Below are positions 1,110 to 62,734 of a stretch of 64,000 bases of DNA, in pieces. Location of the stretch: NCBI GenBank assembly GCA_016699465.1, contig CP064977.1, positions 745,116 through 809,115 of the forward strand, in the 5' to 3' direction. A program made the translations under genes and the position numbers. How positions within the stretch are numbered: position 1 is the first letter of the stretch; every line of letters begins with the position of its first letter. Source of the DNA: Candidatus Campbellbacteria bacterium. GTDB taxonomy: Bacteria; Patescibacteriota; Minisyncoccia; Phycocordibacterales; EsbW-18. The notes under the pieces are model-generated. The model saw only the letters and a list, made by a program, of their open reading frames with translations, was not told the origin of the DNA and searched no databases.

Positions 1110-1118
1110 TGGGAGATA

Positions 1119-4352: not shown

Positions 4353-4372
4353 TCGTTCGTTGTTTGGATAAA

Positions 4373-5353: not shown

Positions 5354-5357
5354 GGAT

Positions 5358-27256: not shown

Positions 27257-28540
27257 ATGGAATCTATCAAGATAAAACTGAGCAATCTGAGACGGGCCGA
27301 GTACAACCCCAGGATCATGCCAGACAGCGAAATGGCCGCGTTGAAGACGAGTATTAAGACCTTCGGCTTCGTTGAGTCAATCGTCGTCAATAGCCACGCC
27401 TGTGAGCGCTGTGGCGACCGTAAAGGCGTCCTGGTGGGCGGTCATCAGCGTACCGCGGCCGTTGAAACGATTGTTGAGGCGGGAGAGCAAATACAAGGCA
27501 TTGTTGTCGATAAAGACGGAATTCACATCCCCGCCAACATCGTGGACTTGCATATCGAACAGGAAAAACTTCTGAACCTTGCGCTCAACAAGATCAAAGG
27601 AAAGTGGGATGAGAAAAAATTGTCGGAAATAATCGTGGAGCTCAAAGAATCTCCATTCATTCCGGCCTCAGGGTTTAGAGACGACGAGATCAGCAGGATT
27701 CTCGATCAAACCTTAGAGGATGAGGAGCAGGATGATGACGAAGGGGATTCGGCTAATAAAGAGCCACGGTCCAAACTTGGCGAAATATACGAGCTCGGTC
27801 CGCACAGACTCATCTGCGGCGATTCGACCGATCCCGAAACTTACAAAAGAATTCTGGGCGAAAACAAAGCCGACATGATATTCACTGATCCGCCTTACAA
27901 CGTGAACTATAAAAGTCGAGGAGACAAGCTGAAGGGAGAAGGAAACGAGTCTATCAAAAACGACAACATGGATGACGATTCGTTCCGGATATTTATCGAC
28001 AAGTGCTTTTATTCCATGATCATCCATACGAAGGAAGGTGCGTCGTTTTATATCTGTTCCGGCTGGAGCTCATATCCGCAATTCTTGGAGAGTATGCTGA
28101 AAAACGGTTTTCAACATTCGGGAGTGATCATCTGGGTCAAGAACGTGCCAAGTATGGGATGGAACGATTATCGCTATAAGCACGAGTGGATCGCTAAAGC
28201 CAAAAAGCCCGATCCAAAAACTGCTCAGGGGATCATCTACGGATGGAAGAATGGCACTCATAAATTCTACGGTGAGAATGAATTCGATGTGTGGGAGATG
28301 CCGAGAAAAGCTGTCTCTCGTTATCTTCATCCGACAGAAAAGCCGGATTGGCTTGCAATGCGAGCGCTCAGGAACTCCACTCAACGCAGCGATATTGTTC
28401 TCGATCCGTTCGGCGGCTCCGGTAGCACCATGGCCGCGGCGGAAAAGGTCGGCCGACGGGCATACATGATCGAGCTTGATCCGAAATTCTGCGATGTAAT
28501 CAGGGATCGCTGGGAAAGAATAAATAAAGCAAAGAAATGA
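27257..28540 (+). CDS. ParB-like nuclease domain fused to a beta-class N6-adenine/N4-cytosine DNA methyltransferase
   Basis: N-terminus ...VLVGGHQRTAA (ParB N-domain). Motif IV IFTDPPYNV followed by motif I DPFGGSGSTMAAA. Confidence 0.8.
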   Translation: MESIKIKLSNLRRAEYNPRIMPDSEMAALKTSIKTFGFVESIVVNSHACERCGDRKGVLVGGHQRTAAVETIVEAGEQIQGIVVDKDGIHIPANIVDLHIEQEKLLNLALNKIKGKWDEKKLSEIIVELKESPFIPASGFRDDEISRILDQTLEDEEQDDDEGDSANKEPRSKLGEIYELGPHRLICGDSTDPETYKRILGENKADMIFTDPPYNVNYKSRGDKLKGEGNESIKNDNMDDDSFRIFIDKCFYSMIIHTKEGASFYICSGWSSYPQFLESMLKNGFQHSGVIIWVKNVPSMGWNDYRYKHEWIAKAKKPDPKTAQGIIYGWKNGTHKFYGENEFDVWEMPRKAVSRYLHPTEKPDWLAMRALRNSTQRSDIVLDPFGGSGSTMAAAEKVGRRAYMIELDPKFCDVIRDRWERINKAKK

Positions 28541-46108: not shown

Positions 46109-47152
46109 ATGGAACCAGCATATCAAGGCGCATTATTAGATACTCGCTCGGAAACGGAGCAATTGAAAGATTATAAATTCGAGGAGATAGTCTCGTCGGC
46201 CGCCCCTGTGGTTTGGAGAGAGAAGAATAAAAGTTCATGGCGAAGATTTCCGATATTTGATCAGGGCCAGTCGGGATCCTGTGTGGCTCAGACAATGGCA
46301 AAGCTTCTCGGCATTCTCTATTGGCTGGCAAACGGCATATATGTCCATTTTTCAGCAACGCATATCTATCAGCGACGAATAAACAAACCTGAAAGCGGTA
46401 TGGGTGGCGACGACGTTTTCAAGATCGCTAGCGAAGGTGTAACTCTTGAGGAATTGGTGCCGAGTCAAAAAATGAGTGACGGGCAGATGGATGCGGTTGT
46501 CATTCCCGAATACAAAAAGAAGGTGGGAGAGATCTTCAAGATCTCGAAAAATTGGATCACGCTACCAATAAAGGACATTGAAACGGTGGCGTCGGTTATA
46601 CAGCAAACAGGCAAGGGAATCATGCTCTGGTTTTATTTCAAATACGACGAATGGGACAAGGATCCGAACGTTAGCTGCGCCGACTTGATGCTTGGAGCTC
46701 CAACAACATGCCGCCACTCGGTAACTGGCGTTGATTTTACGTTGTATAGGGGCAAAAAAGCGGTCGTGATCGATGATTCATGGGGTCCGAACGCAGGGAA
46801 CGGTTCTGGACAGCGTGTCATCGATGAAGACTTCTTCAAGGCTCGTAATTGGGTTGCTCGTTATCCGATGAATTTTCAATTTTCCGAGGGAGTTGATCCC
46901 AATAAGCCGATATATGTTTTCAAAAACGATTTAAAATTCTCGGCGATAGTCTCCTACGGCAATCCTGATGTGGTGGCCTTGCAAAATTGCCTGAAGTTTC
47001 TCGGATTGTTTCCGGTAAACACGGAAAGCACCGGGTACTTCGGGTCGATAACAAAAAGCGGAGTCAAGGATTTTCAAAGGAAGTTCGGACTAATCCAAGA
47101 TGGCGTTGTTGGTTTGGCCACAAGGTCGAAATTTAACGAATTATTCAAATAA
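46109..47152 (+). CDS. Endolysin: papain-like (C1) cysteine peptidase domain plus C-terminal PG_binding_1 domain
   Basis: DQGQSGSCVAQTMAK resembles the papain QGxCGSCWAF active-site Cys motif. The C-terminus (...LQNCLKFLGLFPVNTESTGYFGSITKSGVKDFQRKFGLIQDGVVGLATRSKF) matches the peptidoglycan-binding domain. Confidence 0.65.
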   Translation: MEPAYQGALLDTRSETEQLKDYKFEEIVSSAAPVVWREKNKSSWRRFPIFDQGQSGSCVAQTMAKLLGILYWLANGIYVHFSATHIYQRRINKPESGMGGDDVFKIASEGVTLEELVPSQKMSDGQMDAVVIPEYKKKVGEIFKISKNWITLPIKDIETVASVIQQTGKGIMLWFYFKYDEWDKDPNVSCADLMLGAPTTCRHSVTGVDFTLYRGKKAVVIDDSWGPNAGNGSGQRVIDEDFFKARNWVARYPMNFQFSEGVDPNKPIYVFKNDLKFSAIVSYGNPDVVALQNCLKFLGLFPVNTESTGYFGSITKSGVKDFQRKFGLIQDGVVGLATRSKFNELFK

Positions 47153-47162
47153 AAAAAAATAT

Positions 47163-47342
47163 ATGAGCAAAATATATACATCGGCGAGCAAAATGGTTTT
47201 TATTCTTATGGCGATCGCAACGATCGTGGGGATGTTCATGGGCAAGATTGATCCGAAAGATTTTCTGACATTGGCGTCAATGGCTTTCGCATTCTACTTT
47301 GCGAACAAGGGAGAAAATACTCAGCCGTTTGCGGGGAAATAG
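47163..47342 (+). CDS. Small 2-TM membrane protein (holin/antiholin-like)
   Basis: ATG at 47163 (MSKIYTSASKMVFILMAIATIVGMF...LASMAFAFYFA). Confidence 0.4.
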   Translation: MSKIYTSASKMVFILMAIATIVGMFMGKIDPKDFLTLASMAFAFYFANKGENTQPFAGK

Positions 47343-47423
47343 GATTAAGTCTGCCCTTAACCGGAATCGTTTTTTAGAATTCATCTGTTCAAACCATAAA
47401 AAAAGGTGTAGTATTTAGCCATT

Positions 47424-49061
47424 ATGGCCGAACCTTTTTCATTGTCGAAAGCATATCTACTCGGGCTTATTACAGGCCGAGGCCACTTTTTTCTCGATAG
47501 CAAATCAATCGCTATTGAGTTTTCGCATGCCAATGAATTTGTTGCCGGCATTGCACATTGTACAAAGTGTGGATGGCTTGCTACAGACGATAAAAAAGGC
47601 GGTCTGAAGTGTAAAAATCCTAAATGTGGTCACCCTGTAGATCCATCTGTAAAGAAAGTCTACGACCAGCCAAAATCAACAGTTGAATCACTCAAAGCTG
47701 AAATTATTCCTTTCTTACAGTCAGGAATTAAGGCGGATTTTGATATCACAGGAAATAAATCAATGACGATTCTAGTCATCGACTTCAAAAAAGACAGAGC
47801 ACTATTTGATGAAATCGTTTCTTACTTCAGTCCAGATACAAGCTTCGACAGATTCCATATTCCTAGAATTATTTTCACCACAAACGAAGAAGCCAAGAGA
47901 GAATTTATCAATGGACTGCTCGACACATCGGGCTTTGCGAATGCCGGCGGCTGGCTCAATAGAGATGGAGAAAATGGTCACGGCCGAATGAGAGTATATT
48001 TTCAGATCGTGCGTAATTGGCATTTGCCGGTTGAAATCGATAATTTTATTCGGTCAGAATTTGACTTACCGATACACACAATCGACTGGGGTCATCCGAA
48101 TATTCGAGATGGCAACCTCAAAGATTTCTTTGAAACAAATCCTACGAGTTGGGGTCGTGAACATCAGATAAAATTCTTCCCTGAATACTATCTGGGCTTT
48201 CGATTTCGTATAACATCGAAGCAGGCTATGTTTGATGAGTTGAGAGATCATAACGCCAAAGCTGTATTCAAGGAGAGAGATGACTGGTTTCCACCATCCA
48301 AGGTCACTAAAGGCAAAATAAAGGCATACCATCCAGGCGAAAAGGATCTTCGAATTCCTGAACCTGCGCGAAGACACTTCGATGCTTTTTGGCAGATCAA
48401 CCTAGCTACGGGTTGTAAGTTCCTCAAGGATCTACAGGCAAAGGCAAAAAATCCTGTCACGTTTGCTCTTACAGGCGATCTTGAATCTGCTGAAGATCCT
48501 GCAAAGATTGAAAGCGACTTTGATGTGATCCGAAAAACTCTGACCGAAGAAGCAACAAAAAGACAGCCGGCTGAAAAAGCACCAAGCAAAAGAAGGAAGA
48601 CAGAAAAGGAACTTGCTGAGCAAGCTATGTATCAACCGCTCACTGTTTTCTTTGCAGAATATTTATCGGCAAAATATAGCGAACCTGCGGATACCTTTGA
48701 CACTTCGGCCGGAAACCTCAATCTTTTTCTTAAAAATAAGAATAGAGAGTTGTTGGACGTTTTTGATTACTGCGATAAATACAGAATTCGTCCTGACGTT
48801 GTAGGATTTCTTGAGAAGCAGAAGGCTCTCGGCTTCATAGAGGCAAAAATTACACCTCTTGATCTTAAATCACTTGGACAGTTGATGGGGTATTGTCTTG
48901 TCGCACAACCCATAGAGGCTATTCTCGTGTCTACAAAAGCTCCTTCTCTCAGTCTCATCAAGGTTCTAAAGGCACGACCGGATCTTCTGACCTACGCACC
49001 AGACCGAAGAATTCAGATCGCAACCTTGGAGAACGGAAATGTTAATTTCATTGCAATATAA
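47424..49061 (+). CDS. Hypothetical protein with two degenerate LAGLIDADG-like motifs and an inserted Cys4 zinc ribbon
   Basis: YLLGLITGRGHF (aa 11-22) and FINGLLDTSGFA (~aa 160). CTKCGW...CKNPKCGHP lies between them. The canonical acidic residues are replaced. ~250-aa C-terminal extension. Confidence 0.45.
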   Translation: MAEPFSLSKAYLLGLITGRGHFFLDSKSIAIEFSHANEFVAGIAHCTKCGWLATDDKKGGLKCKNPKCGHPVDPSVKKVYDQPKSTVESLKAEIIPFLQSGIKADFDITGNKSMTILVIDFKKDRALFDEIVSYFSPDTSFDRFHIPRIIFTTNEEAKREFINGLLDTSGFANAGGWLNRDGENGHGRMRVYFQIVRNWHLPVEIDNFIRSEFDLPIHTIDWGHPNIRDGNLKDFFETNPTSWGREHQIKFFPEYYLGFRFRITSKQAMFDELRDHNAKAVFKERDDWFPPSKVTKGKIKAYHPGEKDLRIPEPARRHFDAFWQINLATGCKFLKDLQAKAKNPVTFALTGDLESAEDPAKIESDFDVIRKTLTEEATKRQPAEKAPSKRRKTEKELAEQAMYQPLTVFFAEYLSAKYSEPADTFDTSAGNLNLFLKNKNRELLDVFDYCDKYRIRPDVVGFLEKQKALGFIEAKITPLDLKSLGQLMGYCLVAQPIEAILVSTKAPSLSLIKVLKARPDLLTYAPDRRIQIATLENGNVNFIAI

Positions 49062-49569
49062 TTTTATGGATAAACAAGTTTTTACAAAAAATCTACGTGA
49101 CTGGTTAGAGGCATTCCTCACAAAGAGGTTTTCTTCAACGCATGAAATTGTATTGATCTCCGTGCCAGATACGAGCCTTTCAAAGCTCAATAACGAGCAT
49201 ATAAAGCAGATCCCGAACTATTCATCGTGGGAATTTAAACCTGACATTCTTGGAATCTTGAAAGAAAAGGCATCAGGTAAGCTCGAGCTTGTTCTGTTAA
49301 ATCGATCTACCTCGGCATTAAGTCTCAAAGAACTGGGTGAAATAAACTGTTACGGAAAACTGACAGGCGCTTTTCTTGCGTTCGTTGCTTCTTTAAATGG
49401 AGTATCAAACGAGGTCAACATTCTCTTGCTCGAAAACTCAATCCGAGATCGTGTACTCAAATATGATGAGGGTAAATCAATAATTGTTTTTGGATGGGAT
49501 GAAAAAAATAACCGAATCAATAAAGATTCGATCATTCCTTTCGAGAAAAAAGACTTTCTCGCTGACTAA
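49039..49569 (+). CDS. Hypothetical protein (176 aa)
   Basis: ORF converging on, and overlapping by 4 nt, the minus-strand methyltransferase. No motif recognised. Confidence 0.35.
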   Translation: MLISLQYNFMDKQVFTKNLRDWLEAFLTKRFSSTHEIVLISVPDTSLSKLNNEHIKQIPNYSSWEFKPDILGILKEKASGKLELVLLNRSTSALSLKELGEINCYGKLTGAFLAFVASLNGVSNEVNILLLENSIRDRVLKYDEGKSIIVFGWDEKNNRINKDSIIPFEKKDFLAD

Positions 49570-50372
49570 CGCTTCCAGTAGATACAAATAAACTCGTGTA
49601 CTTTATTGAATCGGAAAACCCAAGGGTATCCGAGAGTCTTCATATTGTTGTATTCTTTTTGGCGATCCCAAATGACGTATTCTTCAAGCTCAAAGCCGAT
49701 TTCCCTCATGATACGAGTCTGATCTTCGTGAAGGGGATAAAATTTATCTTTTTTTCGGATATCCATTACCACGCAACAGCATCGCTTGTTGGGCTTTAAG
49801 GCTTTGTATACCTCTGCATAAACAGATTTTAGATCCTGTAGAAAAGCCTCGTAGTCGCTGATGTTCCCAATATCATTTTTTGAGTCCGAATAGTTGCGCT
49901 GATCACCCATGTCAGCCGTTCTTTTCATGTTTAGAATGTCCCAGTAGGGAGGAGAAGTGACGACGAGATCGACAGAATTAGGCTTTATGTGCTTCAAAAT
50001 GTTTCTTGAATCCTCGCAATAAATCTTCGGCTCGAATCTTTTTATTTTTTTATCAAAATTTTCATCTGCTTCATGATTGGTAACCCTGCCCTGTGCAATT
50101 TTGCAGTAGTCCTTATTTAAATCGAAGCCTATGCCTTTTTTCCCAAGATTGTGGGCCGCTTTCAAAGTAGATCCGATTCCAAGGAAAGGATCAAGAATAA
50201 CCTCACCGGAATCTTTGGTATAGATTTTAATTAATTTCTCGACAAGTTGTTGCGGAAACATAGCTGGATGCTTCAGCTTTCTCTCTTCGGAAGTCTTGCT
50301 TACATCTCTCCAAATACTGAAAGAGTTTTGCAGCCATTCCTTGCCTGTTAAGTTGTTCATTTTTTCAGCCAT
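49566..50372 (-). CDS. DpnA-like N6-adenine DNA methyltransferase (second MTase of a DpnII-type pair)
   Basis: 268 aa. Motif I DPFLGIGSTL. Motif IV DLVVTSPPYWD. Same strand and directly downstream of the Dam-like MTase. Confidence 0.75.
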   Translation of the reverse strand: MAEKMNNLTGKEWLQNSFSIWRDVSKTSEERKLKHPAMFPQQLVEKLIKIYTKDSGEVILDPFLGIGSTLKAAHNLGKKGIGFDLNKDYCKIAQGRVTNHEADENFDKKIKRFEPKIYCEDSRNILKHIKPNSVDLVVTSPPYWDILNMKRTADMGDQRNYSDSKNDIGNISDYEAFLQDLKSVYAEVYKALKPNKRCCCVVMDIRKKDKFYPLHEDQTRIMREIGFELEEYVIWDRQKEYNNMKTLGYPWVFRFNKVHEFICIYWKR

Positions 50373-50373
50373 G

Positions 50374-51396
50374 TTATTTCTTTACGGTTAGTAGGAATAG
50401 ATGCTCCTTAGTAATAATTTTCGATCCGTCCTGATTAATTGCTCGATATCTTTTATGTTCTTTTGTATATTCTTTGACTTCACCTCGTGTACCTAAAATT
50501 TGTTTTAATACTGGGATCGGTATGATTCCTTCATCGTTATAACTGAGAAGGATATACTTCGCCTTTGCCTTTGCTACCAGATCGGAAAGTGCATCGGCGG
50601 CTTTTCTTGAGATCGAGTAATCAGATTTCTGGTCCTCATAGGGTCTCATGCCGGCATTGCCGTATATTTCAGGGATCTTTTTGAACCAGCCCTCGGCGAT
50701 CAACTCAAGGAAAAAGTAATTTGATGCAAATTGTCGTGCATTATAAGGCGGATCAAGATACAACACATCGACTTTATGCATTCCAACCAGATTATTCGCA
50801 TCAGCATGGAAGGCCTTGTTTTCTAGCTTATTGTCTACTATATCTCCATGAGTCAATGTCATGGGTTTTAGGGCTCGTCTATCCCAACTTTTTAGAAAGG
50901 CAGCATATGTACCAGTCACATTTGCAACAAGACTGACGGCATTGATCAAGCTAGTCAACAGGTAATAGTATTCTGTTTCAGAGATGCTCTTGCTTTCCTT
51001 CCATTTTTCAATTTGCTCTCTGACGGCATCAACTTTTTTCGCATTTTCTACCGACAGATACTGTCTTTTATTATTTCCATGTGGCGCATAGTTCTTCGTG
51101 ATGAATCCAACCTTGCCCTTAACATTATTATTTAAATGATCAATGATATCGATGCCGAGATTCAGCTTTTTGAATTTCGGAATCGTATTGGTCTCAATGT
51201 TGGTTCTTGCAAGCGAGTATGCAAATTCGAGAAAATCATTTGAATAAACTGTGTAGCCTAGTTTTTTGAAATGATGTCCGACAGCGGTCGTGCCACTGAA
51301 TATATCAAAAAAAGTTGCTCCTTTTTTGATAGGTAGGGTAGTGACTACTTCTTCGATATAATCCAATAATTTTGTCTTGCATCCGTAATACCTCAT
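50374..51396 (-). CDS. Dam-like (D12 class) N6-adenine DNA methyltransferase
   Basis: MRYYGCKTKLL...FFDIFSGTTAV (motif I). VLYLDPPYNARQF (motif IV). Confidence 0.85.
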   Translation of the reverse strand: MRYYGCKTKLLDYIEEVVTTLPIKKGATFFDIFSGTTAVGHHFKKLGYTVYSNDFLEFAYSLARTNIETNTIPKFKKLNLGIDIIDHLNNNVKGKVGFITKNYAPHGNNKRQYLSVENAKKVDAVREQIEKWKESKSISETEYYYLLTSLINAVSLVANVTGTYAAFLKSWDRRALKPMTLTHGDIVDNKLENKAFHADANNLVGMHKVDVLYLDPPYNARQFASNYFFLELIAEGWFKKIPEIYGNAGMRPYEDQKSDYSISRKAADALSDLVAKAKAKYILLSYNDEGIIPIPVLKQILGTRGEVKEYTKEHKRYRAINQDGSKIITKEHLFLLTVKK

Positions 51397-51516
51397 GTAC
51401 TCGCTATTTTACCTTAAATTTTTACAAAAAGATAATGTCCTTCTTGTATACCGAGCGCTCTTTATAGTTGAGAAGTTTTGTGGTAATATTTTTTGACTTG
51501 AACACCCTCAAAACAC

Positions 51517-53793
51517 ATGCCAATAACTAAAGTAAAAGAAATAAAAAATATTGATGCTTTCGACTCATTTCAATGGAGTGCTGGCAATCTAAAAAAATAT
51601 AACCTTATTTATGGATGGAATGGGTGTGGAAAAACGACTATCTCGCGTGTCCTGAGCTTTATTGAAAAAAAGAAGATCGACATGCCGGAATTTTTTCCGA
51701 TTCAGTTTCAGGTTCAAACTGGTACGGGGTCGACTAAAGAATCAGACTTACCTACAAACAATCTAAGCATTAAAGTGTTTAACGAGGACTTTATTCGAGA
51801 AAATCTAGAGTTCCATGAATCTAAAGCAAAGAAGATACTTATTGTCGGAAAGGACAACATAAATGCTCAGGCGGAAATAGCTACATTGGAAGCGAGAGTC
51901 ACCACAGCAAGAGAAGTTTATAGTCGGCTTGAGGCAGATAAAGGAAAAATCAGCTCAATAGACAATATTCTCACTGAAGCCGCGCGTGAGGTTATCAAAC
52001 AATTCACCAACACACCACTAGGAAGCGGTACATATTACGGCCGAAGTTATAATCGCACAAAAATAGAGCCCCTTGTCACCGAGGGTAAGATTACACAAGA
52101 AAATATTGATTCGTTGATCATAGAAAAATTAGAAGATGTAGATAGTAAAAGGGAAATAATTAAAAGCCAAAAACAAAAAATTGGTTCTGAATTGAAGGGG
52201 GTTGAAGACTTTTCGTCTTTATTCGAATGTGCCAATGTTATTCTTGATAAATTTGTAGACGTAGAAGTGATCCCGGGGCTCGATTCTGACAAAGAGCTTA
52301 GAGATTGGACTGAACATGGATACCATATCCATAAAGACCGAAGTCTTGGGTTATGTCAATTTTGCAAAAAATCTCTCGATAAGGGATTTCTTGAAAATCT
52401 TGGAAAGTTTTTTACCGAGGAGCTCGAAAAAGCAAAACAGGGTATCGATGACATCGTTTCAAAGATTGACCTACCTGAAAACAAGGCTGATACTACGTTT
52501 ATCGAATCCGGTCGACTGTTTCCGGATTTGGCAAATGAATATCTTGGAACAAAATCAAGCATAGAAGATAAAGGTAGAGAGGTGCGTGGCTCGATTACTG
52601 CCCTAGTTAATGCTCTAAAAGAAAAGCGTGAGAACTTGCATGATCAAAAGAAACCGATATCAAAAGTTCCATACCCGGAGAAGACTACTCAAGAATTTAA
52701 TGTACTCATTGAAAAGCTCAACGGCATTATTAAAAAGCACGATGAAAGGATAGACAAAATTGATGAAGCCGCAAAAGCAATTGAGACTCACACAATTGCA
52801 TCAGTCCTGAAGTCGAAGGAGTACTTTAAGAAAAAGCAGGAACTTGCTGATCTTGATGCCAAGCTTGGTCCATTAAAAAACGAGATAGATACCCTTAACG
52901 GAGAAATAAAAAAGAAGCGTGGCGGAGTCCTCAATGCTTCTATTGCGATCGATGGCATAAATGACGTTCTTAAAGATTTTTTTGGCGAATCACACATATA
53001 TCTTGAGTTAACTGATTCGAAAGTTCCAGAGGTGGGTTATATCGTGAAGCGCCGTGGCAAGAATGCTAAACACCTAAGTGAAGGAGAAAAAAGCGTCATA
53101 GCTTTGATTTATTTCCTTGCAAAACTCGAGGAAGACGGCTTCAAAAAAGAGAATGGGATAGTGGTTATAGATGATCCTGTAGACAGTCAGGATGAAATAT
53201 TTTTATTCCGCACTTTCGGCCTTATTAAAAGACAGCTTATAAAAGCTGGACAACTGATCGTACTTACTCACAATTTTGCCTTTTTCAATTTGGTTCGAGA
53301 CTGGATGAATGATACTGATGATGCTGAACTTTATTTGATGACATGTAATCGCACAGTAACAACACATGAGACAAAGATTGAGCCATTGCCAGACATCATT
53401 CGAAAATATAAAACAGAGTATCAATTTTTATTTTTCCAGCTATATAATTTCAATAAAAATGGCACCGGTATAGATGCACCACTTATACCGAACGTTGCAA
53501 GAAAGGCTCTTGAATATTTTGCTGGTTTCAAATGGTCGTGTGGTACTGATAGAGCTTTTGCACAAATGGTACATGATAAATATGTTACTGATCCCAATCT
53601 CAAGAACAAAGGGGTGGCAGACTTCATTGTAAAGTTTCTTCATGAATACTCGCACGGATTAGATTTTACTCGACCGATAACAGCCGCGACTCTTGAAGCA
53701 AAAGATGTTGCAAAAAACATTATCGAATTTATACACATTTCTGATGATGAGCATTACAAGAAACTAAAGGCATTGTGCGATCCTTCTACCTGA
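51517..53793 (+). CDS. RloC-like ATPase / anticodon-nuclease family protein with a Rad50-type zinc hook
   Basis: Walker A GWNGCGKTT. Long coiled coils. CQFC (52354-52365) mid coiled-coil. VVIDDPVDSQDE (Walker B / D-loop). C-terminal R-x3-E ... H (ARKALEYF...LHEYSHG) resembles the PrrC/RloC ACNase triad. Confidence 0.65.
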   Translation: MPITKVKEIKNIDAFDSFQWSAGNLKKYNLIYGWNGCGKTTISRVLSFIEKKKIDMPEFFPIQFQVQTGTGSTKESDLPTNNLSIKVFNEDFIRENLEFHESKAKKILIVGKDNINAQAEIATLEARVTTAREVYSRLEADKGKISSIDNILTEAAREVIKQFTNTPLGSGTYYGRSYNRTKIEPLVTEGKITQENIDSLIIEKLEDVDSKREIIKSQKQKIGSELKGVEDFSSLFECANVILDKFVDVEVIPGLDSDKELRDWTEHGYHIHKDRSLGLCQFCKKSLDKGFLENLGKFFTEELEKAKQGIDDIVSKIDLPENKADTTFIESGRLFPDLANEYLGTKSSIEDKGREVRGSITALVNALKEKRENLHDQKKPISKVPYPEKTTQEFNVLIEKLNGIIKKHDERIDKIDEAAKAIETHTIASVLKSKEYFKKKQELADLDAKLGPLKNEIDTLNGEIKKKRGGVLNASIAIDGINDVLKDFFGESHIYLELTDSKVPEVGYIVKRRGKNAKHLSEGEKSVIALIYFLAKLEEDGFKKENGIVVIDDPVDSQDEIFLFRTFGLIKRQLIKAGQLIVLTHNFAFFNLVRDWMNDTDDAELYLMTCNRTVTTHETKIEPLPDIIRKYKTEYQFLFFQLYNFNKNGTGIDAPLIPNVARKALEYFAGFKWSCGTDRAFAQMVHDKYVTDPNLKNKGVADFIVKFLHEYSHGLDFTRPITAATLEAKDVAKNIIEFIHISDDEHYKKLKALCDPST

Positions 53794-53797
53794 TTGC

Positions 53798-53826
53798 TTG
53801 ACTATAGCAGCTGATTTATTAATTAT
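53798..53826 (+). promoter_or_regulatory. Candidate promoter: TTGACT, 17 nt, AATTAT
   Basis: Perfect -35. Weak -10. Positioned ~10 nt upstream of ATG 53836. Confidence 0.3.
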
Positions 53827-53835
53827 GTGATCATA

Positions 53836-54582
53836 ATGTCGGAATATTACAAAGCCAACCGAACAAAGAACTTATACAATCCAGCAAGCACTGAGCCTTT
53901 TAAGCTGTCTCGCTCAAAGATTGAACAGTTTATGAATTGCCCGAGGTGCTTCTATTTGGATCGAAGGATAGGAGTGGGACAGCCGCCAGGCTTCCCATTT
54001 GCCCTAAATTCGGCCGTAGACACGCTCTTAAAGAAGGAATTCGACATACATCGCGCAGCTCAGACTGCACATCCACTTATGAAGACATACGACCTGAATA
54101 TGGTCCCATTTCAGCATGAAATGATAGACGAGTGGCGGGAGAATTTCAAAGGCATTCAGTTCCATCACAAGGCAACTAATTTCATAATGACCGGGGCGGT
54201 CGACGACCTATGGGTAAATGAGGACAAAGAGATCGTTGTTGTCGACTATAAATCTACAAGTAAACCTTCAAAGGTGACCCTTGATGCTGACTGGCAGATC
54301 GGTTATAAGCGACAAATGGAAATGTATCAATGGCTTCTACGCCAACTCGGCTTCAGAGTTTCTAATACCGGGTACTTCGTTTATGCCAATGGAAAGACTG
54401 ACCGAGAAGCCTTCGATGGAAAACTTGATTTCGATATCGATATCCTGCCTTATACCGGCAATGGATCGTGGGTAGAAGACACACTCTTCAAGATTAAAGA
54501 ATGCCTCGACGGGGAAATGCCAGAGAGCAGCGCATCGTGCGATTATTGCGCTTACCATGAAGCAAGAAAATTGGTAAAATAA
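53836..54582 (+). CDS. Cas4/RecB-like PD-(D/E)xK nuclease with a four-Cys cluster
   Basis: N-terminal CPRC. GAVDDLWVNEDKEIVVVDYKSTS (D...E.K). C-terminal SASCDYCAYHE. The tabulated ORF starts with GTG at 53827. Confidence 0.55.
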   Translation: MSEYYKANRTKNLYNPASTEPFKLSRSKIEQFMNCPRCFYLDRRIGVGQPPGFPFALNSAVDTLLKKEFDIHRAAQTAHPLMKTYDLNMVPFQHEMIDEWRENFKGIQFHHKATNFIMTGAVDDLWVNEDKEIVVVDYKSTSKPSKVTLDADWQIGYKRQMEMYQWLLRQLGFRVSNTGYFVYANGKTDREAFDGKLDFDIDILPYTGNGSWVEDTLFKIKECLDGEMPESSASCDYCAYHEARKLVK

Positions 54583-54586
54583 ATTT

Positions 54587-55027
54587 ATGACAACACTTTA
54601 CAGAGGAACAATAGGACACCCGATAGTTTTTCCAGAAAGCGTAATCATTACGACTGAAAATTTAGATTCCATCGATTTTAATAAAGTGATTTATTGCGAA
54701 ATTTCTCCTATGGGAGCTATGGGCAATGAAGGCGGCATTTTTATATATTTACTGGATGACAAAGAAAAGCTGACTACTTACGAAACCAATGTATCTGTAG
54801 ATAAAGAATCCTACAATGCTACGTTAGAGCGGATTAATCAAAAAGCAAATCTTTTCACTAACCACTCTGGTGGTATGGGGAACTATGTATACATTAAGAA
54901 AGGTGTTGAGCTTGAAATTGATGAAAAATATAATTGCTTTTGGTATCACTCGCAGAACACCAAATTGAGAATTGATAGTTCTGTTAGGGGCGTCTTTCTT
55001 CACCTAGTTGCTGAGATGAAACGCTAA
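54587..55027 (+). CDS. Hypothetical protein
   Basis: 146-aa ORF. Confidence 0.4.
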   Translation: MTTLYRGTIGHPIVFPESVIITTENLDSIDFNKVIYCEISPMGAMGNEGGIFIYLLDDKEKLTTYETNVSVDKESYNATLERINQKANLFTNHSGGMGNYVYIKKGVELEIDEKYNCFWYHSQNTKLRIDSSVRGVFLHLVAEMKR

Positions 55028-55202
55028 AAATGATAAAATAATTTTATTGCGATGACAGACGAAGAATCAAAAAACGAAGATGGCGAGGAAATAGAGGATG
55101 ATGTGAAGGAAGTCATGGAGAACCATGATGTTGATAAAGATACTGCCGAACGAGCTGTTGAGCTTATTGATGAAGGCCTAGACGAGGATGATGCTGTAGA
55201 AG

Positions 55203-55598
55203 TTGCTGAAGAAGGTTTGTAAAATTACAATGGAAGAAACTACTCAAAAAATTATTATAAAGAAGTACCGCACTCCAACAAAGGAAGCGGCGGATTTGAA
55301 AGATGCGATCGAAAAACACGGTGTTCGTGTTTTGGTGGAGCTTCATGACGGACATAAACATATAGATCTAACGATCCCGAAAGCTAAACTCAATGTTGAA
55401 GTGGATGGCATACAGCACCTTATAAATCCCGATCAGATCGTGGCAGACCTAAGTAGGGGATATTACTCTCATAAAAATGGTTTTGATACCATGCATATTC
55501 CGAATGAAATGGTCCGCTTGCATCTAAGTGAGATATCTAAAGCCCTTGCAGAAGCTTCAAAAATTAGAGAGAGAAAAATATATCTTCATTTAGAATAA
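55203..55598 (+). CDS. DUF559/Vsr-like endonuclease-fold protein
   Basis: HIDLTIPKAKLNVEVDGIQH resembles the DUF559 ...DF.....l.iE.DG..H core. Confidence 0.35.
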   Translation: MLKKVCKITMEETTQKIIIKKYRTPTKEAADLKDAIEKHGVRVLVELHDGHKHIDLTIPKAKLNVEVDGIQHLINPDQIVADLSRGYYSHKNGFDTMHIPNEMVRLHLSEISKALAEASKIRERKIYLHLE

Positions 55599-55692
55599 AC
55601 CTTTAATATAAGCCGTAAATACGGCCTACATTATCCCCAGTTGCCTTTTCTGATACAAACTGATACAATCTGTTATAATCTAAATAACAGGT

Positions 55693-56715
55693 ATGAATCA
55701 GGATCAAGAAAAAATGAACTCAGAATCAATTGAAGACCTCATGTCTCCAAAACAGCAGGAGATTTGGAGGTATATTTCGGTTACCGGCGAAGCGAGCCCG
55801 GGTGATATTGTAAAAGCAACCGATATCGCAATGTCGACTGTGCGAAAATCTCTTGAGCGTCTTGTAGAGCTCAAGAAAATAAAAAGGGTTGGCCTTGGCC
55901 GCGCCACTCGGTACGCAAGAATTGAACAATCAACTTCTCTAGTGGCGTCTAATACAGCACTCGATGATACTCTTGAAAAGAAAAATCTAGAACGAGCTAT
56001 TACAGAAAAAGAAAAACAGCTTGCCGAGATACTTGAGCATACTGAAAAAATAAAAGTTGATTTGTCCGTGACAAAATATGAATATGATATAAAAATCGGA
56101 CGTCTTTATCTTAAGCTCGATGAAGTAGAACTTGAAATACTTAAATTGAAGAAAATCGGAGATCTAATCGATCAAGGTCTTTCGTTCGAGGAAGCAAAGA
56201 AAAAAGTTGATGAGAGTCTGCAGAAACGTAAGGAACATATTGAAGAGGAATATAGGAAACTCGAAGACGAAGAAAAAAATATAAAAGGGAAAAAACATGT
56301 ATCTGAGTATGAGCAAGAAGAAATAAAGAGACTGTATCGCAAGCTAGCTCACAAGTTTCATCCTGACCTTAATAAAGGAGACGACGTTATGATGAAAAAG
56401 GTAAACCAGGCTTATGCCGACAACGATCTCGAATCTCTTCGCGCGATTGATGAGAGTCGATTTGCTGAGGATACTGTGATTAGGACGATAGACAAACTGA
56501 AAGAGAAACTCGCTAAACTCGAGGCTGCTGTTGTGAAAGCAAATCAACAGTACATTCTTTTGAAAAAATCAGAATGGTATGTACTTAAGGAAAATATCGA
56601 ATCCTCACTACTTCAAAAACGTAATTTACTTCATGAGCTTGCAGACAAGGTCCTTACTGAAATCGCCAAGAAACAAAATCAGCTTGCTGAGCTGAAGAAA
56701 AAATATGGACAATAA
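55693..56715 (+). CDS. wHTH plus J-domain (HPD) coiled-coil protein
   Basis: N-terminal winged helix (PGDIVKATDIAMSTVRKSLERLVELKKIKR). J-domain signature YRKLAHKFHPDLNKGDD...VNQAY. Extensive coiled coil. Confidence 0.55.
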   Translation: MNQDQEKMNSESIEDLMSPKQQEIWRYISVTGEASPGDIVKATDIAMSTVRKSLERLVELKKIKRVGLGRATRYARIEQSTSLVASNTALDDTLEKKNLERAITEKEKQLAEILEHTEKIKVDLSVTKYEYDIKIGRLYLKLDEVELEILKLKKIGDLIDQGLSFEEAKKKVDESLQKRKEHIEEEYRKLEDEEKNIKGKKHVSEYEQEEIKRLYRKLAHKFHPDLNKGDDVMMKKVNQAYADNDLESLRAIDESRFAEDTVIRTIDKLKEKLAKLEAAVVKANQQYILLKKSEWYVLKENIESSLLQKRNLLHELADKVLTEIAKKQNQLAELKKKYGQ

Positions 56716-57364
56716 ACTGATTAAATCGCCATACTATTCGCTTGAAAAGCTGAGCGAAGATTCGAGACTTGTAAAACGAGGTCTTCGTGATTTGAGCGTA
56801 TGGCCAAAAATCGAATCTCTTTTTAACGAACTGAAACGCAAATATGAGATAAAAGATATTGACGGTTGCATTCAGCTTGCCAGGGAAATACTCGCTACTG
56901 ATCCCTGTCATTTCTTTACCCGGTGCTATTACGGAAGGTGTCTGTACGAAAAAGACGACTATGAAAAATCGGCCGAGATGCTGGGGCAGTGTATTGAAGA
57001 AGAAAGGGGGTACTTTTTTCTCTGGAAATTCAGAGCAGATGCATATATGAAGATGAAAAGGTATGAGCAGGCCCTATCAGATCTCAAGGAATCACTGGTC
57101 ATTGATCCAGGAAACGGTGCAACTCTCGATGACATTGCTCAGTGCCTGTACTTCATGGGCAAATTTAATGAGGCTTACGAATTTATCGACAAGGCAATAG
57201 AGATCGAGAGAGACAGCGAAATGCCTATGGTCCGGAAAGGCCAGTTTTTTGAGTATCAGGGTAGAATAAAAGAGGCGGTAGAACAATACAGTATGGCAGC
57301 GCACGAATTTCCAACCGCCGAATTTGCAAGGAAAAAAGTAATTGAGCTCTCAAAAACATTATGA
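56705..57364 (+). CDS. TPR-repeat protein
   Basis: Several 34-aa W/L/G/Y/A/F/A/P-patterned repeats (YYGRCLYEKDDYEKSAEML..., ADAYMKMKRYEQALSDL...). Confidence 0.5.
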   Translation: MDNKLIKSPYYSLEKLSEDSRLVKRGLRDLSVWPKIESLFNELKRKYEIKDIDGCIQLAREILATDPCHFFTRCYYGRCLYEKDDYEKSAEMLGQCIEEERGYFFLWKFRADAYMKMKRYEQALSDLKESLVIDPGNGATLDDIAQCLYFMGKFNEAYEFIDKAIEIERDSEMPMVRKGQFFEYQGRIKEAVEQYSMAAHEFPTAEFARKKVIELSKTL

Positions 57365-58260
57365 ACAAAGACAAGAGCCTACAAAAAATACCTGAATATT
57401 CGCTAGACAAGATCATCACAAAATCTGATCTTGCTACTCGTGGAATGAGGGAACTTGGACTTCTAAAGAATAAGAAGCACTACACAATTATTTATGTATG
57501 CCAATTTTGCGGAAAGCTCATTAATTACTCCTCAACGCCATGTATTTATTGTGGAAAATTTCCAAAAACCAAAAGAGAAGTTGTGATTGCACAGGCTCTT
57601 TCAAGCGAGAGTATGAGCATTGGGGATCAGCTTTACACATCATCTCTTGTTAAAAGAGGTGAGGACCTAGAAATTGCTATTGATAAGCTCCGAGAAATTA
57701 TTGACCGAATTACCGAGCAGAAGGAGCCGGAACAGCCATATAAAATGCTATTTGCAATATCCGCTGACATGGCAGACCGAACCAATAGAGACGAAAGGAC
57801 ACAACGAATTATCGCCATGACAACTCCACAGTGTCTGGTTTGCGAAAAGAGAATCGCTTTTCTGCGTGACAAATGCGACAAATGTGGGACAGATTTTTCC
57901 GATGTGCAAAAGGTCGTTCTTGCGATAAGGCAGATTCTCGAGTTTATAGAAATCTTTCTTGATGATGATGGCGAGGACGAAGAAAGTCTCGAAGAACTTA
58001 TATTCGTACTGGTTTATACAATCAATAGGGCAGTAGAAAATGATGAGTACCCTGACCAAGAACAATTTAAATATATTTACGAGTTACTTCACAAAACCCG
58101 TTATCTTATTACTCGGCGCCAGGGAGTTGGGGTCGAGATAAAGAATGGCGAAGCGGGGAGGATCGGTGGGTCAGATGGAGATGCTAAAACAAGAGAGGAT
58201 TTTCTATCTGTACTTTTAGCTTTTAATACAGATCACTTATTGCAACAATTAAAACAATAA
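57361..58260 (+). CDS. Zinc-ribbon-containing hypothetical protein
   Basis: CQFCGK...CIYCGK and CLVCEK...CDKCG pairs. Confidence 0.45.
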   Translation: MNKDKSLQKIPEYSLDKIITKSDLATRGMRELGLLKNKKHYTIIYVCQFCGKLINYSSTPCIYCGKFPKTKREVVIAQALSSESMSIGDQLYTSSLVKRGEDLEIAIDKLREIIDRITEQKEPEQPYKMLFAISADMADRTNRDERTQRIIAMTTPQCLVCEKRIAFLRDKCDKCGTDFSDVQKVVLAIRQILEFIEIFLDDDGEDEESLEELIFVLVYTINRAVENDEYPDQEQFKYIYELLHKTRYLITRRQGVGVEIKNGEAGRIGGSDGDAKTREDFLSVLLAFNTDHLLQQLKQ

Positions 58261-58261
58261 T

Positions 58262-59260
58262 ATGGAAAAAACAAATCAAATTAATTCAGTGGGGGCGCGA
58301 CAGAAGATATTCGGACTTTTAGGAAAATACTGGTGGGTACTACTCATAATTGCAATAGGTCTTTTTGCATGGATGGGAGCTCCGGTCCTCCGCTATATTC
58401 TTTACGGAATAGGAATCATTGTGGCGCTTATGATTTTTGCACCGTTCGTTGTCCAGCTTTTTGCTCCAGCCCTCTACTCAATTTCCTTGCTCACTGATCA
58501 CTTTAAACAATCAAAAGGACAGTCTGTGGGAAAGCGCTACTTCTTTCTACCAGCATCTATTGTGGCTGTTGTCGGGTTTGTCACTGCACAAAGTATTCTT
58601 TCAATATGGGTTTTTCTCACCAGCTTCTTTATATGGACATCGGTCGTTGGAGTTTTCTTCAGCTTTATCGGAATATTCTTTTTCGGCCTCGCACCGATCG
58701 CTATAGTCACTGCTCCCTTTGTTGTCTGGATCAAGATTGGCCTAGTTGAATTTATAGCAGTCCTGATATTCTTCCTGACCGCACTATTCTGGTATGGATT
58801 TTCTAAAATGGCATTTCCAGACCATTCATGGAACTCTACACCTGATGATTTCCTTGGCTACTCACCACACACATTTCTTCTCGGAGCACTTTCCTTTCAA
58901 GTTATTGCGCTCCCTTTCTATCACTTTGAGGCAATGGGCATAGGAAACTTTATCTCGGACTTTGGAGGCTTTATCTTTCTTGTTCTTGCTCTCATAGCAT
59001 CATTTAAATGGCGGTCCGCAAAAAAGAAACTCTCGCCGGCTGAAAAAGAAAATCTTTATCGCCCTTCTGCATGGGTATTCTTCCTCGGATTTATGGTTAC
59101 AAACCTACTCTATATGCAATTTCAGCAGGTTTATGATGCACCAACTGCTGTGTTGTTCTGGCTCAACGGCTTCTTCCTAGTCGTGTTGATCGGAAGATTT
59201 TTTGGAATGTTTAAAAAGAAGAAGCAAATTGAACTTGTGCCCACCGTTCATACCGATTAA
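58262..59260 (+). CDS. Polytopic membrane protein
   Basis: ~8 hydrophobic segments. 332 aa. Confidence 0.5.
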   Translation: MEKTNQINSVGARQKIFGLLGKYWWVLLIIAIGLFAWMGAPVLRYILYGIGIIVALMIFAPFVVQLFAPALYSISLLTDHFKQSKGQSVGKRYFFLPASIVAVVGFVTAQSILSIWVFLTSFFIWTSVVGVFFSFIGIFFFGLAPIAIVTAPFVVWIKIGLVEFIAVLIFFLTALFWYGFSKMAFPDHSWNSTPDDFLGYSPHTFLLGALSFQVIALPFYHFEAMGIGNFISDFGGFIFLVLALIASFKWRSAKKKLSPAEKENLYRPSAWVFFLGFMVTNLLYMQFQQVYDAPTAVLFWLNGFFLVVLIGRFFGMFKKKKQIELVPTVHTD

Positions 59261-59264
59261 TTTT

Positions 59265-60464
59265 ATGATTAATTTTTTCAATAAAAAATTCAAAGACGAC
59301 AAGACTGCAGATGCATATGAGCGGGGAATTTCCTATCAGCGTGCCGGCGACTACAAAGCGGCAATCCAGAAGCTTCTTGAGGCAGTAAATGACGATCCGG
59401 CTTTTGTTGAGGCTTACAACAGTCTGGGGCTTACATTTAAAAAGATGGGGGATTTTGATAATGCAATAAAATACTACAACTTGGGAATCGAGGCATACTT
59501 CCAGACTATCTACGATGAAATAAAAATGAAGCCAGTGAGAGAGGTCAGCAATCGATATGCTTCGACCCATTCTGAAACATGGATGGATGTTGCCACTCAG
59601 ATAGCAATAAAAAACAGTGCGAGAGACGGAATAAAGAATGCAAAATTTCCGACTGGTGAAAACGCTCTAAAAATGTCTGGGCAGAATTATATCGCAGGAC
59701 AGGCATTCCATGATGAAAAAGATACACGATACATCCTACCGGCATATTTCAGTGCTGTTTATGAGGCTCTCAAGTCAAGCATTCTTTATTCCATACTCGT
59801 AAATAACGCGGGAACAGTTTTTGCAGAAGAAGGAGACAAAGTGCAGGCCGCCAAATGCTTCAAGGAATCAATGGAATTTATTCCCGATGGAGCAGAATAT
59901 AACGATCCTATGCTCGGCCTACAAGAACTTGGATCGACTACAGACTACGATTCCGGCGAGAAAAGTTTTGTAGCTAAGCTAACAGAAAGACTCGAAAAAT
60001 TCGCTGATTCGAAGGGCAAGATCATATGTTCTAAATGTGGAGAAACTGCTCCATTCTTCGGAATGAGGGGTCATTGTCTAAATTGCAATGAATCATTCGA
60101 TAATAGCCGACGCGCGGATCAGCTCCTTGTAGCCTTAGAGTATCTCTATACCTTTATTGATGAATGCGATGAGTCACTTCATATACATAAAGACGCGGTA
60201 CTAAACGCACTCGCAAATTTTCAGAAAAAAATTAATGATTCCCAGATCTATCCCGAGGAAAGTGACATGGATTCCTTGAGGCATTTAATAAGAGATCTAG
60301 GCCAGATTGGCGGTAATAAATGCGGAGGTGCGATAGATATACCAAAGGATGGTAAATTTGGAATACATCTGCTGCAGAAGGACGGTATGGTTTCCAAGGA
60401 CGCGGCTGAACTTTTGAGTCCGGTACTTTTATCAATAATGTTTATCACTAAAACCTATAACTAA
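59265..60464 (+). CDS. TPR-like plus zinc-ribbon protein
   Basis: ATG at 59265 (MINFFNKKF...). N-terminal TPR-like helices (AYERGISYQRAGDYKAAIQ..., AYNSLGLTFKKMGDFDNAIKYY). CSKCG...CLNCN ribbon. Confidence 0.45.
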   Translation: MINFFNKKFKDDKTADAYERGISYQRAGDYKAAIQKLLEAVNDDPAFVEAYNSLGLTFKKMGDFDNAIKYYNLGIEAYFQTIYDEIKMKPVREVSNRYASTHSETWMDVATQIAIKNSARDGIKNAKFPTGENALKMSGQNYIAGQAFHDEKDTRYILPAYFSAVYEALKSSILYSILVNNAGTVFAEEGDKVQAAKCFKESMEFIPDGAEYNDPMLGLQELGSTTDYDSGEKSFVAKLTERLEKFADSKGKIICSKCGETAPFFGMRGHCLNCNESFDNSRRADQLLVALEYLYTFIDECDESLHIHKDAVLNALANFQKKINDSQIYPEESDMDSLRHLIRDLGQIGGNKCGGAIDIPKDGKFGIHLLQKDGMVSKDAAELLSPVLLSIMFITKTYN

Positions 60465-62564: not shown

Positions 62565-62638
62565 GCCGTTGTAGCTCAATGGAAGAGCATACCCTTGAAA
62601 CGGGTGGGACAGAAGTTCGATTCTTCTCAACGGCACCA
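62565..62638 (+). tRNA. tRNA-Phe (GAA), CCA encoded
   Basis: Acceptor GCCGTTG/CAACGGC. D-arm GCTC-AATGGAA-GAGC. Anticodon arm TACCC-TTGAAAC-GGGTG. T-arm AGAAG-TTCGATT-CTTCT. Discriminator A plus CCA. Confidence 0.8.
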
Positions 62639-62639
62639 C

Positions 62640-62712
62640 GCCCTCGTGGTCCAATGGATAGGATGCCTCTGTTCTAATGAGGAAGGTGCAGGTTCAAGTC
62701 CTGCCGAGGGCA
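62640..62712 (+). tRNA. tRNA-Arg (TCT), no encoded CCA
   Basis: Acceptor GCCCTCG/CGAGGGC. D-arm GTCC-AATGGATA-GGAT. Anticodon stem CCTC(T)/(T)GAGG with loop GTTCTAA. T-arm GCAGG-TTCAAGT-CCTGC. Only 1 nt separates it from tRNA-Phe. Confidence 0.65.
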
Positions 62713-62734
62713 CACATAAAATGTTTCTAAGATA

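Follow-up and report, generated by a model that had tools for sequence, protein, structure and literature searches.

The analysed DNA (the window) is a stretch of 64,000 nucleotides from the chromosome of Candidatus Campbellbacteria, a bacterium of the candidate phyla radiation (CPR; Patescibacteria). A tailed-phage genome occupies its plus strand from approximately 24 kb to 47 kb, and a cassette of five genes (47424-53793) lies directly 3' of the endolysin and holin genes of this prophage. The cassette encodes proteins of 545 and 176 amino acids, two DNA methyltransferases and a 758-aa RloC-like protein, for which the identical NCBI entry bears the name 'AAA family ATPase'. All open reading frames (ORFs) described in an earlier reading of this region, which was made from the sequence alone (the sequence-only reading), were found in place, including the two minus-strand methyltransferases. 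The cassette contains the following features:

47424-49061, plus strand: 545-aa protein, restriction endonuclease candidate (large subunit); it has LAGLIDADG-like motifs, which are degenerate, a Cys4 ribbon and, towards the C-terminus, PD...ExK
49039-49569, plus strand: 176-aa protein, candidate small subunit, weakly paralogous to the C-terminal domain of the large one
49566-50372, minus strand: N6_N4-class DNA methyltransferase, 268 aa (Pfam N6_N4_Mtase, E 2e-36; PADLOC MTase_II, E 2e-50)
50374-51396, minus strand: D12-class N6-adenine DNA methyltransferase, 340 aa (Pfam MethyltransfD12, E 5e-35; PADLOC MTase_II, E 6e-94)
51397-51516, no strand: divergent intergenic region of 120 bp that separates the RloC-like gene from the methyltransferase operon, with only weak promoter-like matches
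51517-53793, plus strand: RloC-like protein, 758 aa, a Rad50/SMC-like ABC ATPase that is interrupted by a coiled-coil/CxxC insert and ends in a putative anticodon-nuclease domain
51613-51639, plus strand: Walker A (P-loop) GWNGCGKTT, residues 33-41, with G33, W34, N35, G38 and K39 invariant
52354-52365, plus strand: CQFC, putative zinc hook, residues 280-283, with C280, F282 and C283 invariant in 30 sequences
53074-53196, plus strand: ABC signature LSEGEK (residues 520-525) and Walker B/D-loop VVIDDPVDSQDE (residues 549-560)
53380-53790, plus strand: all-alpha C-terminal domain, residues 622-758, putative anticodon-nuclease domain, with N659, R662, E666, S712-H713 and H746

Profile searches aligned the 758-aa protein end to end with two families, Pfam AAA_13 (E 1e-109, residues 15-735 on positions 5-711 of 713, C-terminal domain covered) and PADLOC PDC-S06 (E 1.5e-141, residues 1-753 on positions 1-737 of 740). 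In a comparison of defence-finding tools, the same Bacillus cereus proteins were designated 'RloC' by DefenseFinder and 'PDC-S06' by PADLOC (PMC11811056, supplementary file 6). The label 'wobble nucleotide-excising tRNase', assigned by JGI on the basis of COGs, is carried by homologues at 44-86% identity and by one at 28%. The end-to-end family match that characterizes RloC (COG4694) was thus found, and membership of this family by sequence and profile, as proposed in the sequence-only reading, is regarded as shown.

By definition, RloC proteins have ABC motifs like those of PrrC and a coiled-coil insert that bears a CxxC zinc hook, and their C-terminal part contains an Arg-X3-Glu-X36-52-His motif, in which a Ser often precedes the His (PMC2610378). 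All three features were present in the 758-aa protein. Their conservation was analysed in an alignment of 30 sequences at 24-86% identity, which included proteins from Pseudomonas, Dialister and many phyla. Outside the C-terminal domain, the invariant residues comprised those marked above for the P-loop and the hook, S521 and E524 of the signature, D552, D553, P554 and D559 of the Walker B stretch (VVIDDPVDSQD, residues 549-559) and T584-H585 of the switch His region, which completes the set of ABC motifs expected of RloC. In the C-terminal domain, N659, R662, S712, H713 and H746 were invariant and position 666 was acidic (E or D) in all 30 sequences. The segments NVARKALE (residues 659-666) and EYSHG (710-714) together provide an R662-x3-E666-x46-S712-H713 arrangement, which fits the published motif, including the Ser before the His. 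The motifs that the sequence-only reading had picked out (GWNGCGKTT, CQFC, Walker B and R-x3-E...H) were all recovered, and their invariance across sequences as divergent as 24-86% identity argues against chance matches.

An AlphaFold2 model of the 758-aa protein, built with the same alignment (predicted local distance difference test, pLDDT, 83.5), showed two ATPase lobes and an all-alpha C-terminal domain. A helical insert of approximately 380 residues (112-489) with long helices separated the lobes, and the CxxC was located in a non-helical turn between the helices 259-274 and 291-298; this corresponds to the Rad50-like coiled-coil insert with a central CxxC that is typical of RloC, with zinc binding as a putative property. 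When the model was compared with the PDB by Foldseek, the matches were heads of cohesin, Rad50, SMC, condensin and Lamassu LmuB proteins, with E values from 1e-7 to 1e-4 for the coiled-coil heads, which establishes an SMC/Rad50-like fold. A phmmer search of PDB sequences yielded nothing useful for the RloC-like, 545-aa, Cas4-like or DUF559-like proteins (the latter two are encoded downstream of the cassette).

The layout of the protein resembles that of the wobble-nucleotide-excising RloC of Geobacillus kaustophilus HTA426 (GkaRloC; PMC2610378, PMC3458546) in its ABC lobe, coiled coil with CxxC, signature, Walker B, switch His and C-terminal domain. K44, C291, D572, R692, E696 and H737 of GkaRloC occupy positions comparable to K39, C280, D552/D553, R662, E666 and H713 here, with a Glu-His spacing of 40 versus 46 residues. 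Like many rloC genes, the gene studied here is cargo of an integrated phage. Unlike that of GkaRloC, its host is a CPR bacterium and its neighbour is a candidate type II-like restriction-modification (R-M) system, instead of the gene being solitary or part of a type I or III locus. PrrC-EcoprrI of Escherichia coli, encoded in a type Ic R-M locus, shares the combination of an ABC ATPase with a C-terminal RNase, the same triad logic, the linkage to R-M genes and a role as second-line abortive defence. However, PrrC has been described as lacking a coiled-coil/zinc-hook insert and as always located between hsd genes, whereas the 758-aa protein has the 380-residue insert; it is not a PrrC. Prophage-encoded ABC-HEPN proteins (APECO1_4465 group; PMC3710099) likewise combine an ABC ATPase with a HEPN-type RNase, reside in prophage islands and have been proposed to act in phage exclusion. 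This group has been described as distinct from RloC and PrrC, whereas the 758-aa protein has the RloC-type hook and motif. Its assignment as an RloC-type protein is well supported at the level of sequence, since every sequence feature of RloC that could be sought here was found.

The remaining four genes of the cassette form a module with the appearance of an R-M system. The 545-aa protein had no match in Pfam, PADLOC, PHROG or NCBIfam, and the 176-aa protein likewise matched no known restriction-enzyme family. At least 352 homologues of the large protein, of approximately 545 aa, were found in CPR bacteria, Polynucleobacter, Nanoarchaeota, Actinomycetota and Firestonebacteria. Their invariant residues (C46, C49, C63, C68, D167, D458, E473 and K475) include a Cys4 ribbon and a P-D458...E473-x-K475 motif, which accompany two degenerate LAGLIDADG-like motifs. 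BLASTP aligned the 176-aa protein with the 545-aa protein over 122 residues (E 1e-4), with KPDILGI of one opposite RPDVVGF of the other. Homologues of the small protein, of 159-168 aa, follow the large gene in four other loci (L002, L254, L255 and L256).

Three distant genomes (L254-L256) encode the large protein, a 159-168-aa protein, an N6_N4 methyltransferase and a second methyltransferase, without RloC. The methyltransferases are on the opposite strand, with the exception of MT-A70 in Polynucleobacter. While the N6_N4 enzyme is the constant methyltransferase of the module, the second position is taken by D12 in Actinomycetota, N6_Mtase/Eco57I in Nanoarchaeota and MT-A70 in Polynucleobacter. 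The sequence-only reading had recognized a Dam/DpnA pair; the D12 and N6_N4 classes of the two enzymes were confirmed, but they belong to this conserved four-gene module and do not stand as a bare pair. The four genes probably constitute a mobile R-M system with a candidate two-subunit endonuclease, and the 545/176-aa pair is a candidate for a new restriction-enzyme family.

DpnII-type R-M systems also combine two adenine methyltransferases of the D12 and N6_N4 classes. However, no endonuclease gene of the DpnII/MboI family was found among the neighbours by Pfam; the 545-aa and 176-aa genes adjoin the methyltransferases instead. Heterodimeric type IIS enzymes such as BtsI and BsrDI consist of a large subunit with a recognition domain and a nuclease site and a related small subunit, and are accompanied by two methyltransferases. 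By description, the layout of the present module, with a large subunit, a nuclease-related small subunit and two methyltransferases, is similar. It differs in the predicted recognition module, which is degenerate LAGLIDADG-like with a zinc ribbon, and in the lack of a conserved ExK in the small subunit.

The five genes from 47424 to 53793 are the co-inherited unit. In two CPR loci (L002 and L006) with an RloC that is 86% identical, the same five-gene block was found at 68-92% identity, next to an endolysin of another type (Amidase_2) and with a DUF2779 gene after RloC. The GC content of the cassette (0.37-0.42) is lower than that of the phage core (0.46). A viral contig (L093) encodes an endolysin C-terminus and a holin that are 72-76% identical to those of the window. 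Between its holin and Cas4-like genes (355-8004, equivalent to 47342-53836 of the window) it carries a ResIII helicase, an N6_N4 methyltransferase, a C5 methyltransferase, NOV_C and DUF3644, which represent a type III-like R-M set. Beyond DUF3644 follow a Cas4-like gene (78% identical to that of the window), a T5orf172 protein, MetK and an integrase. Because L093 holds a different gene set in the stretch from the holin to the Cas4-like gene, this stretch after the lysis genes acts as a slot for exchangeable cargo, with one R-M-type system taking the place of another between related elements. The cassette is thus modular cargo. The sequence-only reading had located the region at the end of the prophage, which is reasonable, since it directly follows the lysis cassette. 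Megablast of positions 47000-57000 against GenBank phages gave no match.

The most likely explanation of these data is that a CPR prophage carries, after its endolysin and holin genes, a five-gene defence cargo composed of a probable R-M system and an RloC-type anticodon nuclease. The biochemistry of GkaRloC, which excises the wobble nucleotide from tRNA, is activated by ATP and DNA ends and is sensitive to zinc (PMC2610378, PMC3458546), provides the model for its possible action. By analogy with the Geobacillus protein, the Rad50-like ATPase head and the coiled-coil/zinc hook would hold the nuclease silent, and linear DNA ends together with ATP would switch it on. The C-terminal domain, of a presumed HEPN-type RNase (R662, E666, H713), would then cut tRNA anticodon loops. 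The resulting stop of translation in an infected cell would lead to abortive infection and superinfection exclusion, to the benefit of both lysogen and prophage. It is plausible that cuts made in incoming DNA by the neighbouring candidate restriction enzyme would provide the DNA ends and thereby trigger RloC.

Several observations weigh against this explanation. The C-terminal domain, when modelled separately (pLDDT 83.3, predicted TM-score 0.80), gave no significant match in a Foldseek search of the PDB; a HEPN toxin reached the highest TM-score (0.42), with an E value of 3.5. The PADLOC search proposed in the sequence-only reading returned the RloC class PDC-S06, but its PrrC model aligned solely to the ATPase segment (residues 518-609, E 4e-9). 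The likeness to validated RloC and PrrC proteins was drawn from published motifs and residue positions, and the putative RNase activity of the 758-aa protein and its trigger were deduced by analogy. A restriction function of the 545/176-aa pair is suggested by gene context and a single motif, and the ExK of the small subunit is not conserved. Finally, a direct-repeat search of the window revealed no convincing att sites, and the right boundary of the prophage lies beyond the window.

RloC-type anticodon nucleases are an established and frequent single-gene defence, and one more example adds little in itself. The value of the locus lies in documenting defence cargo in a prophage of a CPR bacterium and in the cargo slot after the lysis genes, where R-M-type systems are swapped between related elements. 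Phage-host biology of CPR bacteria is still mostly inferred from metagenomes. The four-gene module is the most interesting by-product, as it is widely distributed and its two non-methyltransferase proteins, which fall into no known family, are good candidates for a new type of restriction enzyme. Should this be confirmed, such an enzyme and its specificity might be of practical value. In a bolder proposal, to which we assign a low probability, they would represent an undescribed family of two-subunit restriction endonucleases across Bacteria and Archaea, with a degenerate LAGLIDADG-like module and zinc ribbon that recognize DNA and a PD...ExK site that cuts it, always accompanied by an N6_N4 methyltransferase and an exchangeable second one. 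Joined to RloC in CPR prophages, the enzyme would generate the DNA ends that switch on the tRNA nuclease, thus forming a self-contained 'cut, sense the cut, shut down translation' cassette in a slot bounded by the lysis genes and the CPR-wide Cas4-like gene.

The genomic neighbours of RloC bear on how tightly the two parts of the cassette might be coupled. Among the best 80 genome loci with RloC homologues, which included neither G. kaustophilus nor Acinetobacter baylyi, the type I subunits HsdS and HsdR were the most frequent neighbours, HsdS on the upstream side (12 of 59 family members) and HsdR on the downstream side (6 of 57); others were MmeI-type enzymes, RhuM, RadC and more. A CPR homologue at 50% identity (P0010) is part of an hsdR-hsdMS-rloC arrangement. 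Such hsd-linked neighbours are the 'restriction-linked ORF' pattern behind the name of RloC; no hsd genes were found in the window. RloC homologues also occurred in 127 IMG/VR stretches. The census agrees with reported RhuM and R-M associations of the PrrC/RloC group (PMC3710099). Both the location of RloC beside R-M genes and its occurrence as prophage cargo have been described previously (PMC2610378, PMC3458546, PMC3710099), so that the pairing with R-M genes, which the sequence-only reading had singled out as unusual, is ordinary.

It could be argued that RloC and the R-M module form one obligate complex in the manner of PrrC-EcoprrI, in which the nuclease would be kept silent by the R-M proteins until a phage anti-restriction factor set it free. 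Inheritance of the five genes as one block in three related elements would fit such a complex, as would the location of about a fifth of the RloC family in type I hsd loci and the D12-type methyltransferases upstream of RloC homologues in L011 and L012. However, Polynucleobacter, Nanoarchaeota and Actinomycetota carry the four-gene module with no RloC beside it, R-M genes do not adjoin most RloC homologues, and RloC is transcribed divergently from the methyltransferases here. Moreover, the invariance of the CxxC hook argues that the internal switch of GkaRloC has been retained. An obligate complex is therefore considered doubtful, and RloC appears instead to have been added to the R-M module in these CPR prophages.

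No more credible is a reading in which the methyltransferases are orphan anti-restriction methylases of the phage, the 545- and 176-aa proteins are unrelated phage genes and RloC is the sole defence gene. Orphan Dam-like methyltransferases are often carried by phages, this prophage encodes a further ParB-methyltransferase fusion (27257-28540), and the 545/176-aa proteins match no restriction-enzyme family. Against this stand the recurrence of the module order in four distant lineages (CPR and three others, the latter without recognisable phage context), the invariant PD...ExK of the large protein and a patchy, cross-domain spread at 45-58% identity that is typical of R-M genes.

Still less probable is that the 758-aa protein is a generic SMC/Rad50-like DNA ATPase, active in repair, conjugation or Lamassu-like sensing, with C-terminal helices that are structural or bind DNA. 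This alternative is favoured by significant structural matches that were solely of SMC, Rad50 and LmuB types, by a best NCBIfam match to an archaeal SMC-related protein (far below its cut-off) and by a C-terminal domain that had no significant structural match and was not reached by the PrrC profile. Yet this domain contains the exact RloC motif, with R, E/D and S-H invariant down to 24% identity, and is spanned end to end by the AAA_13 and PDC-S06 profiles. In G. kaustophilus RloC, each of the three residues is essential for nuclease activity (PMC2610378). The sequence-only reading had named assignment to a generic SMC/AAA_23 family as the outcome that would speak against RloC; the Pfam match was instead AAA_13 over residues 15-735. 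A profile of the C-terminal domain, searched against 1.84 billion representative proteins, retrieved 1929 clusters, mostly at the C-terminus of approximately 750-aa proteins. Matches in proteins of approximately 400 aa (366-426 aa) were considered as PrrC-like and rejected, as those inspected were RloC-like C-terminal fragments without Walker A. With the best 150 of the 1929 clusters listed and the inspected short matches being fragments, this search says nothing about PrrC.

Four ORFs follow the RloC gene on the same strand:

53836-54582, plus strand: Cas4/RecB-like PD-(D/E)xK nuclease, 248 aa (ORF from 53827; the ATG at 53836 is backed by homologues and an independent gene call)
54587-55027, plus strand: 146-aa protein without a family match (Pfam, PADLOC, NCBIfam, PHROG); the copy in L092, which also follows the Cas4-like gene, is 74% identical
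55052-55222, plus strand: 56-aa highly acidic ORF (26 of 56 residues D or E, isoelectric point 4.05) without a family match
55230-55598, plus strand: mobile gene for a small protein of 122 aa with a borderline match to the DUF559/Vsr-like endonuclease fold (ORF from 55203, likely start 55230)

It is very improbable that the Cas4-like nuclease serves the Rad50-like RloC as its DNase (as in Mre11-Rad50 or SbcD-SbcC) and forms a single island with it and the DUF559-like protein: its gene does begin 42 bp past the RloC stop on the same strand, and DUF2779, another PD-(D/E)xK-clan protein, takes the same position in L002/L006, but tblastn detected a Cas4-like neighbour in 0 of 84 other RloC loci, the only PD-(D/E)xK-type proteins among 57 other downstream neighbours were two DUF2779 proteins of one lineage, no similarity was detectable between the Cas4-like and DUF2779 proteins, the family comprises more than 8000 clusters with mostly housekeeping neighbours, and the GC content of the gene (0.448) resembles that of the backbone and not that of the cassette.

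The compact immunity island of RloC, Cas4-like, DUF559-like and methyltransferase genes drawn in the sequence-only reading was accordingly replaced by the cassette that ends with RloC. The Cas4-like protein matched PDDEXK_1 (E 5e-15) and, just above the cut-off of 22.7, Pfam Cas_Cas4 (24.1 bits), while its score against NCBIfam TIGR00372 cas4 (35.5) was well below the cut-off of 65. Its family has invariant CPRC (38-41) and CDYC (238-241) motifs, as had been predicted; the predicted 'D..E.K' was imprecise, the conserved residues being D126/D127, D140-Y-K142 and Q163...Y167. C226 is also conserved. The RecB-like PD-(D/E)xK core and QhxxY motif of Cas4 are thus both present. Canonical Cas4 proteins have one N-terminal and three C-terminal cysteines, whereas the pattern here is CxxC...C...CxxC. 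Stand-alone Cas4/RecB nucleases of phages and mobile elements are of similar size (approximately 250 aa) and, as here, combine this core and the QhxxY motif with cysteines at both ends and lack cas1, cas2 or CRISPR nearby. A repeat scan and family searches of the whole window confirmed the reported absence of a CRISPR array and of cas genes, and no cas genes were among the most frequent upstream families of 55 loci with Cas4-like family members.

Unlike such stand-alone nucleases, the Cas4-like protein belongs to a CPR-wide and unusually conserved family. Its clusters, of approximately 250 aa, stem from many CPR lineages, and those listed and aligned were 62-94% identical, a conservation that is unusually high for a nuclease; their neighbours are heterogeneous (L086-L095, L174-L253). 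As the family is huge, conserved and mostly flanked by housekeeping genes, a stand-alone Cas4-like nuclease, the second aspect called unusual in the sequence-only reading, is not unusual here. In the 55-locus census, the upstream neighbours were mostly cyclophilin, DUF5671, DHH, YqeY, PCMT and rRNA methylase, with a minority of ResIII, Eco57I, HsdR and reverse transcriptase. A role as dedicated R-M or defence companion, which the first three contexts had suggested, was rejected in view of this census. Defence-like contexts included an MmeI-like enzyme with SNF2/PLD in L086 and D12 methyltransferases with a NucS-like protein in L089. The idea that Cas4-like and DUF2779 proteins are homologous occupants of one position was likewise dropped after BLASTP. 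The possibility of a phage exonuclease with a recombination partner nearby did not hold either, as the best PHROG is of unknown function and the Sak4-like candidate lies 28 kb away. The Cas4-like gene is regarded as a conserved backbone gene of phage or host, outside the RloC system.

The small endonuclease-like gene after the Cas4-like gene varies between loci: DUF559-like in L089, HNH in L086 and T5orf172 in L093. For the 122-aa protein of the window, the family call made in the sequence-only reading is borderline (DUF559, PF04480: 20.9 bits with the cut-off at 20.6, E 3e-4, over positions 46-103 of the 109-position profile), while the ORF itself was confirmed. The protein had no PADLOC, PHROG or NCBIfam match, and PDB 3hrl was matched at an E value of only 0.77. 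Copies were found directly after the Cas4-like gene in L089 (81% identical) and after an S49 peptidase in L006 (77% identical). The composition of the 56-aa acidic ORF is reminiscent of DNA-mimic anti-restriction proteins; it had no homologues beyond an identical contig. The Cas4-like, 146-aa, 56-aa and DUF559-like genes are separate backbone or mosaic genes and not components of the RloC system.

Upstream of the cassette, the following genes of the phage genome were annotated:

24535-25716, plus strand: Sak4-like protein, the sole annealing-protein candidate in the phage-genome annotation
27257-28540, plus strand: ParB-like domain fused to an N6_N4 DNA methyltransferase (phrog_498, E 2e-117), the third methyltransferase of the prophage
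from 30168, plus strand: large terminase
from 32007, plus strand: portal
from 40690, plus strand: tape measure
from 46109, plus strand: endolysin, with a holin-like ORF next to it

Two tRNA genes, tRNA-Phe(GAA) and tRNA-Arg(TCT), are located 1 bp apart at 62565-62713, approximately 9 kb downstream of the putative tRNA nuclease. They were considered as an integration site or as RloC-related cargo; no tRNA genes were present in six other related loci that were scanned (L002, L006, L092-L095).

The first 17 kb of the window encode sortase- and pilin-like surface proteins. Next to sortase and SpaA-like pilin genes lies a 1344-aa ORF (10423-14457) with six tandem repeats of 414 bp, which share 99-100% identity except for the last one (85%). 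Its GC content is 0.55-0.57, as compared to approximately 0.43 in its surroundings, and its C-terminus has a weak dockerin-like match. It probably encodes a repetitive surface protein. At the other end, after the DUF559-like gene, the stretch from 55693 to 60464 encodes a coiled-coil protein with helix-turn-helix and DnaJ domains, two TPR proteins, a zinc-ribbon-rich protein and a polytopic membrane protein. Pieces of this set recur in related elements: L092 has a DnaJ N-terminus, L086 a TPR protein and L195 the 332-aa membrane protein.

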